Below are positions 19,796-26,617 of a stretch of DNA of 64,000 nt, in pieces (position 1 is the first letter of the stretch; each line of letters begins with the position of its first letter). Source of the DNA: Candidatus Obscuribacterales bacterium (GTDB lineage: Bacteria > Cyanobacteriota > Vampirovibrionia > Obscuribacterales > Obscuribacteraceae); contig JACKCM010000007.1 in the NCBI GenBank assembly GCA_020634035.1, positions 42,508 through 106,507 on the forward strand, written 5' to 3'. Under the pieces are notes generated by a model. That model worked only from the letters and a program-made list of their open reading frames with translations. It was not told the origin of the DNA and did not search any database. The translations under genes and the position numbers were made by a program.

Positions 19796-22700
19796 ATGAC
19801 CGATACCAAGCAAATCGAGAAAAGCAGAGCCGATGGCGGCAAAGGCAGCGATAAAGATACCAAGGACGCAATCGCCGAGGTAAGTCGCCAGCAGTTCGAT
19901 GTGCCCAAAGCGGAAACCCAGGGCAGAGAATCTGCTACTAAGGCAGAAACCAAATCAGAAGCCGGAGGCGAGGCTCTCGCCCCTGTTGATGCAAGCAAGG
20001 TCAGCGACAGGCTGAGCCGGGAGTCTCTCGATGCCGACGCCCTCTCTATTCTCAAGGGCAATGACGGCAAAGGCGACCGCAGAGGCGACGGTAAAGATAG
20101 TGTGGCGCTTCACGCTCTCGAGATCACCGGAGCCCCAGAAGCGAAGCCAAAGCCAGAAGCCACCCCAGAGCAACGCCTTTCTGGCAAAGAGATTCAAAAA
20201 ATCGCCGAAGCAATAGATAATGCAGCCAATGGCGGCTTCCTGGGCATAGGCACCGACAAAGAGGCTATCAACGAACAGCTCCGGCGCCTCAAAACTCCAG
20301 AAGAACGAGAGACTCTGGATAGGCTCTACAAAATCAGAACCGGGCATGACATCGAGGCCGAGCTCAAAGACGAGCTGAGCGGCAGCGACCTCGCCAGAAG
20401 CATGGCGCTCTGGAAAGGTCAAAACGACACCGCCGTCAGGCTCAACACCGACCTGATAGAGCACGGCGAGTACTGGGGCGCTCGCTCGACCGCGAACGTC
20501 GAGAAAGACATCCGCATCAGCCTGAGCACCCTCACCTCGGACCAGGTCACAGAAGAGATGACCAAGTTCGAAGAGCGCTATGGCAAGTCGTTCAAAGAGA
20601 CCATCGCCAACAACCCGGATATCTCGAGAGAGACCAAAGAAGCCGTCGATATCTATCTCAAAGGCACGGACAAAAGAACCGACGCCGATACCGGTAAGCT
20701 TGCCCAGACCGCCCTTGAAACAAGAAATATGGATATGTTCCAGGAGGTTTTCTCTACGGCGTCGCCCGGCGCGCGCGCAGAGTTCATGAAGGACGATGGG
20801 GCGGACAAAATTCTGAAGGCGTTCGGCACGCCCTATGCCACCGAATATGATCCTGAGGTATATTACTTACCCAACGAAGATACCAAGCATGCGCTCGATT
20901 ATGCGCGCGGGGGCGGGCTCGAACTTGCCACCAAGATAGAAGCCAACACCGGCATTCTCATGGACAATGAAGACGCCATCGAGCTTGCTCTTGATGGTAT
21001 GTCCAAAGGTGAGAGAGCTTCTTATCTCCACGGTCGCGACCTCAGCGATAAGAACCCGTCGGGCTCACCGGCGAAGCCAGAATCAGAGCTATCGGCATCC
21101 GAAAAACAGGATCTTGCCTACTTCAAAGAGATCCGCACTGCCCTCGAGGGCGCCGGCAACGAAAGAGAACTCGCCGTCTGGGAAGACCGCATAAAGCATG
21201 GCAAAGACGGCAGTCTGGTAACAAAGCTGGCGGCCCATGGCGGTATCATCGACGATGGCATGAACGATGTGCTTGGTACCATCGAAGACATGTCTCAAGA
21301 AGACTGGAAGCGATTAAGAGAAGACAAAGACTTCTACAAAGAAGTAACCGGCGTCCTCAAGATAGACCTGAGCAAAAGTGAGATGTCCCGGGCTGAAGCC
21401 TTGCTGAAAGCCAAGATGGAAGCCGGCGACTATGATTATTCTAAAAAACATGTTCGCAGAGACGTATTCGACGCGCTCGCTGACAGCAGCACCGGTGATG
21501 AAGTCATAACGAATCTCAAGAAGATGACTCCTAAAGAGCAAGAGTGTTATCGTACTGATAATGATTTTAAAGAGCAGCTAGATGGCAAGGTAGATGGGTC
21601 TGTATTGCTGCCCGCGCACAGACAAGCTGCCGACTCTATCATGGATTCTATAAAGCAGGGCAAGCCACCAGAGAATGACATCGTCGCCAAGGTCTTCATG
21701 CACAGCGCAAAAGGAGACCGCGACGCCCGCGAAGTCGTATTAGACATAAAAGAAGCCATACGGAAAGACCCTGGCATCGTCGAAGCCTACCGCGCAGACC
21801 CGGAGTACAGAAGGAAGTTCGATGAGGCTCTAACAAATGCCGTTCTGCCCGCCGACAGAGAAAAGTATATAGACCCGATGCTCAATGGTGAGCGGCTGCC
21901 TTTCAAGACCCAGGCTCAGCTATATGACAGAATCATCAATGACGAGTCCGGTCTCTACGAGGCGATTAAGCGAGGCTCTCAAGAAGACTGGAACGAGATT
22001 GTCGCAGACCCCGACAAGGTGCTGGGCTTCTTAGGAGAGGATTATCGTGAGATCGCAGTAAACATCGCAAAACAGGGCGGCAAACTGCAGCCCGAAGACG
22101 AGATGCGAATCGCCATGCTCGGTGCCGGCACCGACGAGGCCGCACTTAAAAGATTGTCGAGGGACCTCACCCCAGAGATTGCCAGAGCCTTCGTAGAAAA
22201 GTATGACGCCGACGCCCTCGGCGATATGCTGGACGAGACCGGTGGCTCTGACAAGCAAGAGATTATTCTAGAAGCCAGACCGGATCCTAAAAATTCTACC
22301 GAGCTTTTATTCGACGTCTTAGACCGCACCACCAATAGTGTCGATGGCATAGGCGAAGCCATGGCCGATGGCGTCGACGGCACCGGCGACATGAGCAAAG
22401 ACCTGCTTAATAGACTTGCGGCATCTGTGGCCGAGTGTAATAGAGGCGACAAAGAGCTTACTAAAGAAGATCTGGTTAAAATCGAAGATCAGTTTAAAGA
22501 AGGTATCAGACTATACGGAGAGAGCGAAGAGTTCGCGGCAAACACCGCCGTCGACGCTGGCTTAATAACCCTTGCGGTTGCCACAGGCGGGGTGGGCAGC
22601 ATAGCCGCAGCGGCTTACTGGACCGCCGGCGGTGCGCTGGCTAAAGTAGGCACCAAGGCGATTATTCTGGGCGATGACTATGACTTTTGCAGTTCAGATG

Positions 22701-25700: not shown

Positions 25701-26617
25701 ACGCCCGAGAGCTGACGAGCTTCAACGAAGCCGTGGACGGCCGCGTTCAGCAGATTCAGGATGTCCTGGATCGCTATGCCGACAGCCATGACTTGCCCCG
25801 GGTCAAGCTGAAACATCGCCCGCAGCGCGATATGGCTAATGCCGGCGCGACTTATTCTGACGGGCAAATAACGGTCACCACAGAAGCGCTGCTCAATGAC
25901 AGGCAGGCAGCGAATCTTATTGGCAGCACCCTGCATGAGATGACTCACAATGAGCAGAACAAGATAGCAGTCTGGGGCGTCATAGACAGCCTGGGCGGCA
26001 ACCCGTCTGTTAAAGAGATTCAGGATGTCTTCCAGGGCTTCACCGGAAGATCCGTCTCGGAAGACTATGTCAATCAAGTGGTGGCGCTGCGCAATGGCGC
26101 CGAGCTATCGCCGCGAGATGCGGGCAGGCTCTATGAGATATTGGGGTCTTTGCGTGAGAACGCGCCAGTTGATAAAGAGTGGAGTGAGCTGGGCAACAGC
26201 TTCCGTGTGGTTAATCGAGATCTTCAAAAGTTGACCGGTGATACCGAACCCAGTGCCGCTTTTAGAATCTTGTCAGAGATGGCATCGAAACCGGGCAAAT
26301 TCGAGAAGCACCTCTTTGAAGGGCCGGTGCCGGCTGAACTGAAGCCTTACATGGATCGTATAAGGGCGTTTAATAGAGGCGCCGATGACGCCTGGACCCA
26401 GGAGACCGAGCGCGAGGCGCGCCAGGTTCTTCGCCGCTATTACGAAGGGCGCACCGAAAGAATAAACGCTAGAAGAGAACAGCTATACGACAACTATATG
26501 CAGTTCCACGAAGTGGACGCCTGGTACGTGGGCGAAAGAGCGAGGCTGGCAGCAAGAAGCGCCGGAGCGCCAGATTCTAGCGACCAGATTATCGATGGCA
26601 TCAACTGGGCGCTATGA
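19796..26617 (+). CDS. giant acidic protein (2273 aa) with annexin-like repeats and a C-terminal HExxH (HEMTH) zincin-like motif
   Basis: It has no signal peptide. Annexin-type repeats include GFLGIGTDKEAINEQL...YKIRTGHDIEAELKDELSGS and LGAGTDEAALKRL. HEMTH is encoded at nt 25934-25948 (CTG 25931 is the preceding Leu). Its N-terminal charged leader is weakly related to the three other toxin-like proteins. Confidence 0.7.
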   Translation: MTDTKQIEKSRADGGKGSDKDTKDAIAEVSRQQFDVPKAETQGRESATKAETKSEAGGEALAPVDASKVSDRLSRESLDADALSILKGNDGKGDRRGDGKDSVALHALEITGAPEAKPKPEATPEQRLSGKEIQKIAEAIDNAANGGFLGIGTDKEAINEQLRRLKTPEERETLDRLYKIRTGHDIEAELKDELSGSDLARSMALWKGQNDTAVRLNTDLIEHGEYWGARSTANVEKDIRISLSTLTSDQVTEEMTKFEERYGKSFKETIANNPDISRETKEAVDIYLKGTDKRTDADTGKLAQTALETRNMDMFQEVFSTASPGARAEFMKDDGADKILKAFGTPYATEYDPEVYYLPNEDTKHALDYARGGGLELATKIEANTGILMDNEDAIELALDGMSKGERASYLHGRDLSDKNPSGSPAKPESELSASEKQDLAYFKEIRTALEGAGNERELAVWEDRIKHGKDGSLVTKLAAHGGIIDDGMNDVLGTIEDMSQEDWKRLREDKDFYKEVTGVLKIDLSKSEMSRAEALLKAKMEAGDYDYSKKHVRRDVFDALADSSTGDEVITNLKKMTPKEQECYRTDNDFKEQLDGKVDGSVLLPAHRQAADSIMDSIKQGKPPENDIVAKVFMHSAKGDRDAREVVLDIKEAIRKDPGIVEAYRADPEYRRKFDEALTNAVLPADREKYIDPMLNGERLPFKTQAQLYDRIINDESGLYEAIKRGSQEDWNEIVADPDKVLGFLGEDYREIAVNIAKQGGKLQPEDEMRIAMLGAGTDEAALKRLSRDLTPEIARAFVEKYDADALGDMLDETGGSDKQEIILEARPDPKNSTELLFDVLDRTTNSVDGIGEAMADGVDGTGDMSKDLLNRLAASVAECNRGDKELTKEDLVKIEDQFKEGIRLYGESEEFAANTAVDAGLITLAVATGGVGSIAAAAYWTAGGALAKVGTKAIILGDDYDFCSSDVVTDLATGAIDTGVGTAPQFVARALGIGRATSQTATQAILASAEEVSLAGGKQLLKEGAEEVLERGIMDQITVAIANNTGEVSEQAIKTLATRVTASADDIPNVTRLIQKHITEAAQLESGNAVKAAFRQYALNTASAEIGGVGSASVYNIDNEAGFDTVLMTAGIAGFAGIGGTFIGRTFSKGTGVADDVLRGASGENVAIGGHVDDLIPESAADDILEAASGRPARDVLEGKTEIPTAKGKIEIDYHGDGPLDGQIKHLSSADGVNYSSADGRTWTVSDANAPGGKVEVKGRLEVHEDGGIAFTPDGGNTVIATADGKHIEINKLTGEAREVAAERMLRDVDGRPYGKRAGAIDRFEHLNPTERAASVQEVADDLSKVKAIGPDGKPVSVYDSLMDDPTLSQAQKENILHNLSEVREHFAAYRQGDRMHPDPEVNWIHTQGELGKVMESARANKLTAEEMEDAMLASMYSDSVKFAFPPPEGANANFFTHHLEGALAADEMLSRQGFPRERIDRIVQAIKEHQIAPPEFMGLLYHGQIKRGLDAQLANNAITAEKHGQMMEVLDSMTVKKEVAPGVELSYIDKIANVNDAPLVRNADGSYEVMFTPQERELMQVAGVEGWSVPANPQLDAGFEALPKAEQERLISQYKISRALIDGDGIDNYTTLGGASKIVTIRGPETMFQDATVWKSVDSVDQSFRDAYNVMTPEGQRLANQSLAGRNQILHDTENGVKAKMDEWLRSKGLDPDSQDIPYYNKPLKYPEKLTPQQTEELNSLTAMNKPGAAGVDASTPEARASRDARIRELKYNGLSEDEIKQFEFAKEIRSQMADVMRREHRIDGSLPGNFDNTRMRLRELGEAGSDALGEHAEIIGARGGDGKLWYPERDLRKLTTAERMQVKEILEGKVSPLATKDSVDGFVKDMVPIVKGFKDDMAPQMKHVEELRASYEEKVGAYMLARDTSDFPLNQYTAPDFEAKFREFVKDDPQRLKALDDYVLARDAYARELTSFNEAVDGRVQQIQDVLDRYADSHDLPRVKLKHRPQRDMANAGATYSDGQITVTTEALLNDRQAANLIGSTLHEMTHNEQNKIAVWGVIDSLGGNPSVKEIQDVFQGFTGRSVSEDYVNQVVALRNGAELSPRDAGRLYEILGSLRENAPVDKEWSELGNSFRVVNRDLQKLTGDTEPSAAFRILSEMASKPGKFEKHLFEGPVPAELKPYMDRIRAFNRGADDAWTQETEREARQVLRRYYEGRTERINARREQLYDNYMQFHEVDAWYVGERARLAARSAGAPDSSDQIIDGINWAL

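Follow-up and report, generated by a model that had tools for sequence, protein, structure and literature searches.

Giant annexin-bearing modular proteins of Obscuribacterales with shuffled C-terminal enzymatic domains: candidate delivered effectors or toxins

A giant gene and its modular product

We analyzed a stretch of 64,000 nucleotides (referred to here as the window) from a Candidatus Obscuribacterales bacterium (assembly GCA_020634035.1, contig JACKCM010000007.1, positions 42,508 to 106,507 of the forward strand), with a focus on a single giant gene within it. Its product is an acidic modular protein of 2273 amino acids (aa) that joins a conserved N-terminal module, which contains annexin repeats and is followed by hydrophobic segments, to a beta-hairpin spacer and two large C-terminal domains related to hydrolases. 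The features of the gene, numbered along the window, are as follows.

19796-26617, plus strand: complete gene for the 2273-aa acidic modular protein, with an ATG start (from the list of open reading frames [ORFs] and the translation)
19796-20185, plus strand: charged, low-complexity, disordered-looking N-terminal region, aa 1-130 (translation, hydropathy)
20183-22510, plus strand: part of conserved module A that holds the annexin repeats, aa ~130-905 (BLAST map, invariant alignment columns)
20222-20431, plus strand: annexin repeat 1, aa 143-212, with a GIGT...DE calcium-loop-type motif (Pfam, family profile, hhalign)
20474-20641, plus strand: weak, degenerate annexin-like repeat lacking the GxGT loop, aa 227-282 (iterated hidden Markov model [HMM], E = 1.7e-9; hhalign probability, 22%)
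22097-22315, plus strand: annexin repeat 2, aa 768-840, GAGTDE... with a shortened loop (family profile, iterated HMM, hhalign)
22529-22675, plus strand: Gly/Ala-rich hydrophobic segment of hairpin length, aa 912-960 (Kyte-Doolittle peaks of 1.5-1.7)
23162-23245, plus strand: second Gly-rich hydrophobic segment, aa 1123-1150 (hydropathy peak of 1.61, family alignment)
23396-23701, plus strand: all-beta hairpin-repeat domain, aa 1201-1302 (strands across residues 2-102 of an AlphaFold2 [AF2] model; predicted local distance difference test [pLDDT] score of the block, 72-88)
23753-25255, plus strand: module B, an HD/phosphodiesterase (PDE)-superfamily phosphohydrolase-fold domain, aa ~1320-1820 (assigned at the fold level)
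25313-26581, plus strand: module C, a zincin-like domain with an HExxHxxQ...E signature, aa ~1840-2262 (AF2 model, invariant columns)
25934-25948, plus strand: HEMTH motif of module C, aa 2047-2051 (H2047, E2048, and H2051), followed by Q2054 (sequence)
26510-26512, plus strand: codon of the invariant E2239 within YMQxHExDAW, the candidate third zinc ligand (alignment of 14 relatives)

An earlier note on this DNA, made from its letters alone, had singled out this acidic ORF, which is present as described: the protein has a pI of 4.85 and contains 405 Asp and Glu residues versus 286 Lys and Arg residues. Five near-full-length orthologs, P0001 to P0005 (P and L numbers denote family members and loci, respectively), are 73 to 91% identical across their length and share the same start methionine; because their start sites agree, we consider the gene model to be sound. 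The translation and its hydropathy profile revealed no signal peptide, as the same note had stated, and no hydrophobic segment at the N terminus. Within the N-terminal region lies the sequence DALSILK (aa 81-87), an instance of a short motif that a motif scan located in 26 of 72 family members. The underlying pattern, [DE][AS]LxI[ILV][KR], often follows H[VI]SQQ and, in the closer subfamilies, occurs at the N terminus, possibly as a signal for docking or export. A scan of the protein against NCBIfam returned zero matches, a database look-up of its exact sequence retrieved no entry, and a search for promoters and terminators near the gene produced no usable result. In base composition, AT skew is strongly positive across the gene (0.20-0.28), with flanks at about 0 to -0.1, and the GC content of the gene (0.535-0.55) is slightly above that of most of the window.

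Annexin repeats and hydrophobic segments in the conserved N-terminal region

Mapping of the homologs onto the query by BLAST revealed that module A (aa ~130-1100), which is predicted to be helical, is common to all 71 of them. It contains two GxGTD motifs, GIGTD at aa 150 and GAGTD at aa 776, and the segments around these motifs are the ones that had earlier been taken for annexin-like repeats. With the query alone, the Pfam Annexin model (PF00191) gives a subthreshold match over aa 148-196 (19.5 bits versus a gathering score of 25; E = 0.001), and the homologs score 48-51 bits, above the threshold. Family profiles match annexin VI at E values of 4.6e-27 and 9e-22, their matches to annexins VI, XII, and V together range from 4.6e-27 to 1e-13, and dozens of further solved annexins are recovered as well; all of these matches run through aa ~148-206 and ~774-825. 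In the family-profile alignments, repeat 1 pairs with repeats of annexins VI, XII, and V and repeat 2 with those of annexins V, VI, and A2, and an hhalign self-comparison relates the two to each other with a probability of 94%. On the basis of these profile matches, we regard both GxGT segments as genuine annexin repeats, which bears out their first assignment.

In the endonexin or type II calcium loop, a GxGT motif precedes an acidic residue by about 38 positions. Repeat 1 displays this arrangement as G150-I-G-T153 with D192/E193 at +39/+40, a spacing one residue over the canonical value, which is also the family consensus (38); repeat 2 has GAGT with a loop spacing that is 4 residues shorter. 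The four contiguous repeats of an annexin core are not present; instead, hhalign and the iterated HMM recover two robust repeats about 600 aa apart and one weak repeat. The suggestion that aa ~130-830 be examined for annexin repeats thus had a divided outcome: the two quoted segments are annexin repeats, but the rest of the region is not detectably annexin in the hhalign self-comparison or the iterated HMM search, and we reject the view of aa 130-830 as a continuous annexin array.

Both hydrophobic segments are kept in register in every family member examined, and the first of them, aa 912-960, is predicted to insert into membranes. The beta-hairpin domain downstream of them is found in up to ~6 tandem copies in P0024 and P0027, as seen from repeated BLAST matches.

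Module B, an enlarged HD/PDE-type domain

On the homolog map, module B extends over aa ~1311-1820 and is shared mainly with the subfamily whose members contain RHS/YD and LysM domains. It adopts the helical fold of HD domains, and H1388, H1408, D1441, H1460, H1461, and H1492 are invariant or nearly so. We found no match to the Pfam HD or PDEase models in this region, and a phmmer search with it against the PDB returned zero matches. Its closest named relatives are the HD phosphohydrolases and the class I cyclic-nucleotide phosphodiesterases, including the PDE domain of Legionella SidE. Sequence identity with its HD/PDE structural neighbors is 10-20%, and at ~500 aa, with additional helical and beta insertions, module B far exceeds the closest of these in length (174-188 residues) and also exceeds PDE catalytic domains, which span about 290-370 residues. 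Module B is, in short, a divergent and enlarged HD/PDE-type domain, and it is probably an active metal-dependent phosphohydrolase.

Module C, a zincin-like domain

On the homolog map, module C spans aa ~1840-2271 and recurs in a subset of homologs different from that carrying module B. The HEMTH sequence reported in the earlier note was recovered at exactly the place given there. In a protein of this composition, the expected number of chance HExxH occurrences is about 0.05 by our own arithmetic. Across 14 diverse relatives, H2047, E2048, H2051, and E2239 are invariant, and Q2054 is conserved in at least 90%; in 35 more distant relatives, H2047, E2048, and H2051 are conserved in at least 90%. 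The AF2 model of module C (pLDDT, 87; predicted TM score, 0.82) has three short strands (model residues 183-207), a helix bearing HEMTH (217-245), and then ~8 further helices, so that the HExxH motif lies on an active-site helix behind a beta sheet. E2239 is placed on the last helix, where it is a candidate third zinc ligand. In M48 peptidases, the corresponding motif is a Glu in an ExxA context, and the invariant downstream Glu of module C is found in such a context.

Sequence comparisons of module C yielded matches below threshold, with no curated family and no solved structure recovered above it. A module C profile run against the PDB aligned the strands and the HExxH helix to those of the minigluzincin proabylysin at an E value of 0.037; with a broader profile, this match was lost, and only coiled-coil noise remained. 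A Foldseek comparison with the PDB gave no match at an E value of ≤0.001. When the 35 distant relatives were scanned singly, subthreshold matches were obtained to DUF6782, a "putative metallopeptidase" (7 of the 35), SprT-like (3), and M48 (2), together with weak ones to YgjP (1), Zn_peptidase_2, and M78. The recurring weak Pfam and PDB matches are exclusively to zincin families. The proposal that the C terminus holds a peptidase fold is supported by the zincin-type sheet, the HEMTH helix, and the conserved Glu of the model, but the sequence matches stay below threshold.

An exhaustive search of 1.84 billion representative sequences placed module C in 591 clusters at 50% identity, 136 of them at an E value of ≤1e-30. 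It is N terminal, internal, or C terminal, sometimes present in multiple copies, in proteins of up to 7286 aa, and every carrier with a name belongs to Obscuribacterales or Melainabacteria.

The HExxHxxQ...E signature is also that described by Zhang et al. for the PVC-metallopeptidase domain (PMC3482391), which corresponds to DUF4157 (PF13699), and module C displays it as HEMTHNEQ together with the invariant E2239. Those authors proposed an autoprocessing role for the PVC-metallopeptidase (PMC3482391). By extension, module C might be a protease that releases the HD/PDE domain or other modules from the polyprotein, and its occurrence at either end or in the interior of giant multidomain proteins, with several copies in some, agrees with such a role, as does the common signature. 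Several observations speak against it. PF13699 is missing from the full Pfam list of the query (E values of up to 10) and from the first 25 families listed for the 14 and the 35 relatives; the PVC-metallopeptidase processing domain is ~80 aa long versus ~430 aa for module C, with its large helical elaborations; and module C is terminal in the giant protein and in P0028 to P0034. We consider autoprocessing somewhat unlikely, and since it is compatible with every other reading discussed below, its likelihood is not to be added to theirs.

Lineage restriction and shuffling of C-terminal domains

The phylogenetic distribution of the homologs, which the earlier note had asked for, proved to be narrow. 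All homologs carrying a name are from metagenome-assembled genomes (MAGs) of Melainabacteria, Candidatus Obscuribacter, or Obscuribacterales. When one genome per GTDB species was scanned, 31 loci with the conserved N-terminal module came to light, and nearly all of these are likewise in Obscuribacterales or Melainabacteria MAGs; the exceptions are records labeled "Flavobacterium" and "Oculatellaceae", both of which are probably misbinned, and a few titled simply "bacterium". Among records that carry a name, the giant-protein family was thus detected only in the Obscuribacterales/Melainabacteria lineage. Up to three paralogs per genome were found in the same scan.

Behind the common N-terminal module, the family members carry differing sets of FHA, PP2C, GGDEF, transglutaminase-like, dual-specificity phosphatase, and RHS/TEN_YD-shell domains, and modules B and C are combined in different ways among the 71 homologs. 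The exchange of C-terminal regions is most evident between close paralogs. P0049 and P0050 are 88% identical across 1325 aa, after which their C-terminal tails are unrelated; taken together, the pairs P0049/P0050 and P0052/P0053 have identities of 73-88% within the first ~1330 aa, followed by unrelated tails. Such displacement of the C terminus between close paralogs is a hallmark of polymorphic toxins, and the family shows the combination that defines them, namely, a constant N-terminal region and C termini that recombine among close relatives.

In the RHS/YD subfamily (P0007 to P0023), the C-terminal ~700 aa contain conserved TCNVTTLE ... GWHVxN ... D motifs. These resemble the Cys-His-Asp triad of papain or transglutaminase-like enzymes, which here would be interleaved with YD repeats.

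The gene neighborhood and the readings that it bears on

Two neighboring genes have counterparts next to other family members.

18624-19652, plus strand: upstream partner, a 342-aa protein of the protein kinase fold (profile match to PknE, E = 1.9e-8)
28100-30568, plus strand: 822-aa protein with no Pfam match (tblastn, 92% identity over 290 aa to positions 14833-15702 of L002)

The upstream gene had been described in the earlier note as kinase-like, and the kinase fold is confirmed. A profile built from four sequences of this partner matches bacterial and eukaryotic Ser/Thr kinases, PknE among them. Orthologs are found directly upstream of the giant gene in L002 (73% identity) and L001 (48%), and a 27%-identical homolog is encoded in L004, two genes downstream of the RHS-type paralog P0010. 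The protein in the window lacks the catalytic Asp of the HRD motif and the DFG motif of active kinases: it and its two orthologs have FSNLKPEH in the catalytic loop and DAG for DFG. Because these sequences replace the catalytic motifs, the product is probably a pseudokinase; the homolog in L004 retains HGD...N and DPG. A search of the 4-kb flanks at 31 further family loci did not recover the partner, and we reject it as a family-wide feature. Bona fide Pkinase genes adjoin P0028 and P0046.

These neighbors raise the question of whether the giant protein might be a resident scaffold for signaling or envelope maintenance rather than a delivered protein. The annexin repeats would then attach to the cytoplasmic membrane of the producing cell, possibly as calcium or lipid sensors, the hydrophobic hairpins would serve as anchors there, and the C-terminal enzymes would be signaling outputs under the control of Ser/Thr phosphorylation via the kinase-fold partner. 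The conservation of this partner at four loci, the Pkinase genes next to other family members, the FHA, PP2C, GGDEF, and dual-specificity phosphatase domains fused in paralogs, and the lack of both a signal peptide and an immunity gene all accord with this possibility, as does the common role of HD/PDE domains as second-messenger phosphodiesterases. Against it are the RHS/YD shells, LysM domains, and papain or transglutaminase-like domains of the largest subfamily, which typify exported toxins; the near-identical paralogs with displaced C termini; the numerous paralogs in an unstable gene context; the absence of the partner from the 31 further loci searched; and the loss of the catalytic Asp from the partner in the window. 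Weighing these, we consider a resident scaffold to be rather unlikely.

Downstream of the giant gene, no gene on the same strand follows immediately; the next gene (26646-27671, minus strand) is convergent, and its product is a coiled-coil protein of 341 aa with hydrophobic segments at both the N and C termini. This gene is absent from the orthologous locus L002 and looks like an insertion into the cluster. Its neighbor, the 822-aa gene, has an ortholog directly downstream of the giant gene in L002; from this placement, it may be a third member of a three-gene cluster that has been split by the insertion in the window. Elsewhere, the downstream genes differ among orthologous loci, and beyond the kinase-like partner, gene context is not conserved at these loci.

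The earlier note had remarked on the lack of an obvious downstream immunity gene, and this holds for the convergent gene in the window and for the orthologous loci, none of which has a conserved candidate. A potential exception was offered by a gene for a 172-aa protein without a Pfam match that directly follows two paralogs, P0028 and P0010 (L003, 14181-14702, and L004, 14460-14975). The two copies are homologous (36% identity) despite the differing C-terminal domains of the proteins that they follow, and the gene is absent from the window; hence, we reject it as a cognate immunity gene, and its product may instead be an accessory factor.

This bears on the possibility that the family comprises strict interbacterial polymorphic toxins whose immunity genes are unrecognised or encoded elsewhere. 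The constant N terminus and variable C termini across the family, the RHS repeats and LysM domains of paralogs, and the 172-aa gene directly after two of them are in line with this view. On the other side, the 172-aa gene has the homology and distribution just described, the next gene in the window is a convergent one whose product is a coiled-coil membrane protein, and the cargo recognized by Pfam comprises phosphatases, PDE-like domains, and proteases, rather than the nucleases and deaminases typical of such toxins (for comparison, see PMC3482391). A strict interbacterial toxin thus seems to us very unlikely.

Several further genes in the window drew our attention. The large ORFs at 28100-30568, 40207-42378, and 52569-55166 (all on the plus strand; 822, 723, and 865 aa, with no Pfam match) share a layout consisting of a charged, disordered N terminus, a Gly-rich hydrophobic middle, and a C-terminal region bearing a motif, HEVGH in the ORF at 40207 and RHE[VL]GQ in those at 28100 and 52569. 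Homology links the C-terminal ~270 aa of the 822-aa protein to those of the 865-aa protein (28% identity; E = 4e-21). The three proteins may constitute a second family of membrane-inserting, zincin-like proteins. Upstream of the kinase-like gene is a urease cluster (13437-18547) of split orientation, with ureD and ureG on the minus strand and ureF (160 aa only), ureC, and ureE on the plus strand; ureA and ureB may correspond to small ORFs at 14869-15649. The urease genes are not conserved beside orthologs of the giant gene. Genes of the mobile or defense type are scattered through the window, namely, an AbiEii toxin and an AbiEi antitoxin ~22 kb apart, a DDE transposase, a protein with a Fic domain, and a methyltransferase that weakly matches HNH (in that order, 11769-12836 [plus], 34267-35094 [plus], 36372-37802 [minus], 43141-44760 [minus], and 32328-34136 [minus]), a pattern that points to a variable region of the genome.

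A proposed role as a delivered modular effector or toxin

The reading that we favor, and to which we assign about an even chance, is that the giant protein is a delivered modular effector or toxin, in which an N-terminal module for docking on membranes is combined with exchangeable enzymatic cargo; it leaves the target unspecified, and this may be eukaryotic or bacterial. We favor it because the N-terminal module is constant, the C-terminal enzymes are shuffled, and the C termini are displaced between close paralogs; because there are multiple paralogs per genome in an unstable gene context; and because the surroundings are rich in toxin-antitoxin, Fic, and transposase genes.

Under the favored reading, the N-terminal ~1100 aa would act as a unit for membrane targeting and membrane insertion. 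The annexin repeats would dock on acidic phospholipids, probably in a calcium-dependent manner, and the hydrophobic segments would then insert into the membrane. The cargo of the giant protein, made up of the beta-hairpin spacer, the metal-dependent phosphohydrolase of the HD/PDE fold, and the zincin-like metallopeptidase with its HExxHxxQ...E signature, might act on the docked membrane or be passed across it. Once in place, these enzymes could hydrolyze a substrate of the phosphoester or nucleotide type and cleave a protein; the zincin might instead cut the polyprotein itself.

Several points weigh against this interpretation. FHA, PP2C, and GGDEF cargo and neighboring kinase genes would fit resident signaling equally well, these domains and kinases being classic parts of intracellular bacterial signaling. 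The position of the HD doublet in module B reads S1440-D1441, i.e., SD. Hydropathy is the whole basis of the predicted membrane insertion. No immunity-type gene is conserved after the giant gene in the window or the orthologous loci. Finally, the protein lacks a signal peptide, and the Pfam and NCBIfam scans found no secretion or trafficking domain in the protein and no secretion-system gene among the genes of the window that were scanned.

With regard to the target, the earlier note had preferred a host-directed effector, which is plausible because there is no immunity gene and the cargo is of the signaling type. A bolder version of the delivered toxin can also be conceived, in which the family would be a self-delivering multieffector toxin specific to Obscuribacterales. 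Here, the annexin and hairpin module would dock on and enter membranes of eukaryotes (protists or algae), whether prey or hosts, with no need of a dedicated secretion nanomachine, and would translocate the shuffled enzymes, including two new catalytic families, with the pseudokinase gating deployment. We regard this version as decidedly unlikely.

Relationship to known systems

The nearest precedents are toxins of Haliangium ochraceum and Microscilla marina, in which a PVC-metallopeptidase/DUF4157 domain is combined with an annexin domain and with Ntox3 or a lethal-factor-like peptidase, and in which the annexin has been proposed to aid in breaching target membranes (Zhang et al. 2012, PMC3482391; Kodavali et al. 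2014, PMC3894181). The giant protein shares with them the occurrence of solitary annexin repeats, an HExxH metallopeptidase, and other enzymatic domains in one polypeptide, and the HExxHxxQ...E signature is common to the two at the motif level. Some of these toxins, in which annexin was put forward as a membrane-binding accessory, also carry predicted transmembrane regions. There are, however, marked differences. In the giant protein, the zincin domain is C terminal, ~430 aa long, and unmatched by DUF4157 or Peptidase_M90; two widely spaced annexin repeats are set within a conserved helical module of 800 aa; an HD/PDE domain is added; the lineage is Obscuribacterales; and no PVC or extracellular contractile injection system (eCIS) genes were seen in the window.

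Like the Rhs/YD polymorphic toxins, the family has a constant N terminus and displaced, variable C termini, and many paralogs contain RHS_repeat and TEN_YD-shell domains. Unlike them, the giant protein has no Pfam-detected RHS repeats, YD shell, PAAR, or VgrG and no adjacent immunity gene, and its cargo consists of several large enzymes, as opposed to the one small encapsulated toxin of Rhs proteins.

MARTX and the large clostridial-type toxins are very large polypeptides in which a membrane-interacting region is joined to strain-variable arrays of modular effectors, and in MARTX toxins a cysteine protease domain autoprocesses the polyprotein. The likeness of the giant protein to these toxins is an architectural analogy, and homology was not found: we detected no RTX or glycine-rich nonapeptide repeats, cysteine protease domain, glucosyltransferase, or type I secretion signal in it.

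Annexin-bearing modular toxins and the logic of polymorphic toxins are therefore of an already known kind. What is new is the Obscuribacterales family with its ~1100-aa annexin/hairpin module, the enlarged HD/PDE-like and zincin-like modules for which there is no curated model, and the pseudokinase partner. The literature that we searched contains no description of this family, its modules B and C, or the pseudokinase partner, and nothing relevant emerged from it on annexins or toxins in Melainabacteria or Obscuribacter.

Implications

The analysis delimits two sizeable domain families, the ~430-aa zincin-like domain (591 clusters) and the ~500-aa domain of the HD/PDE fold, which can now be annotated. 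The presence of a conserved hydrophobic hairpin alongside annexin repeats also provides a testable model of how annexins function in bacteria, a question that dates from the descriptions of 2012-2014.

Obscuribacterales are uncultured, nonphotosynthetic relatives of cyanobacteria. They occur widely in soil, freshwater, and wastewater, and most of what is said of their ecology is guesswork. Were the self-delivering toxin to prove true, it would point to a predatory or host-associated lifestyle for these bacteria. More broadly, an expanded and rapidly shuffling family of 1.5- to 7-kaa (thousand-aa) proteins that couples membrane-targeting annexin repeats to enzymatic cargo would offer the first concrete clue, at the molecular level, that Obscuribacterales act antagonistically or toward hosts.

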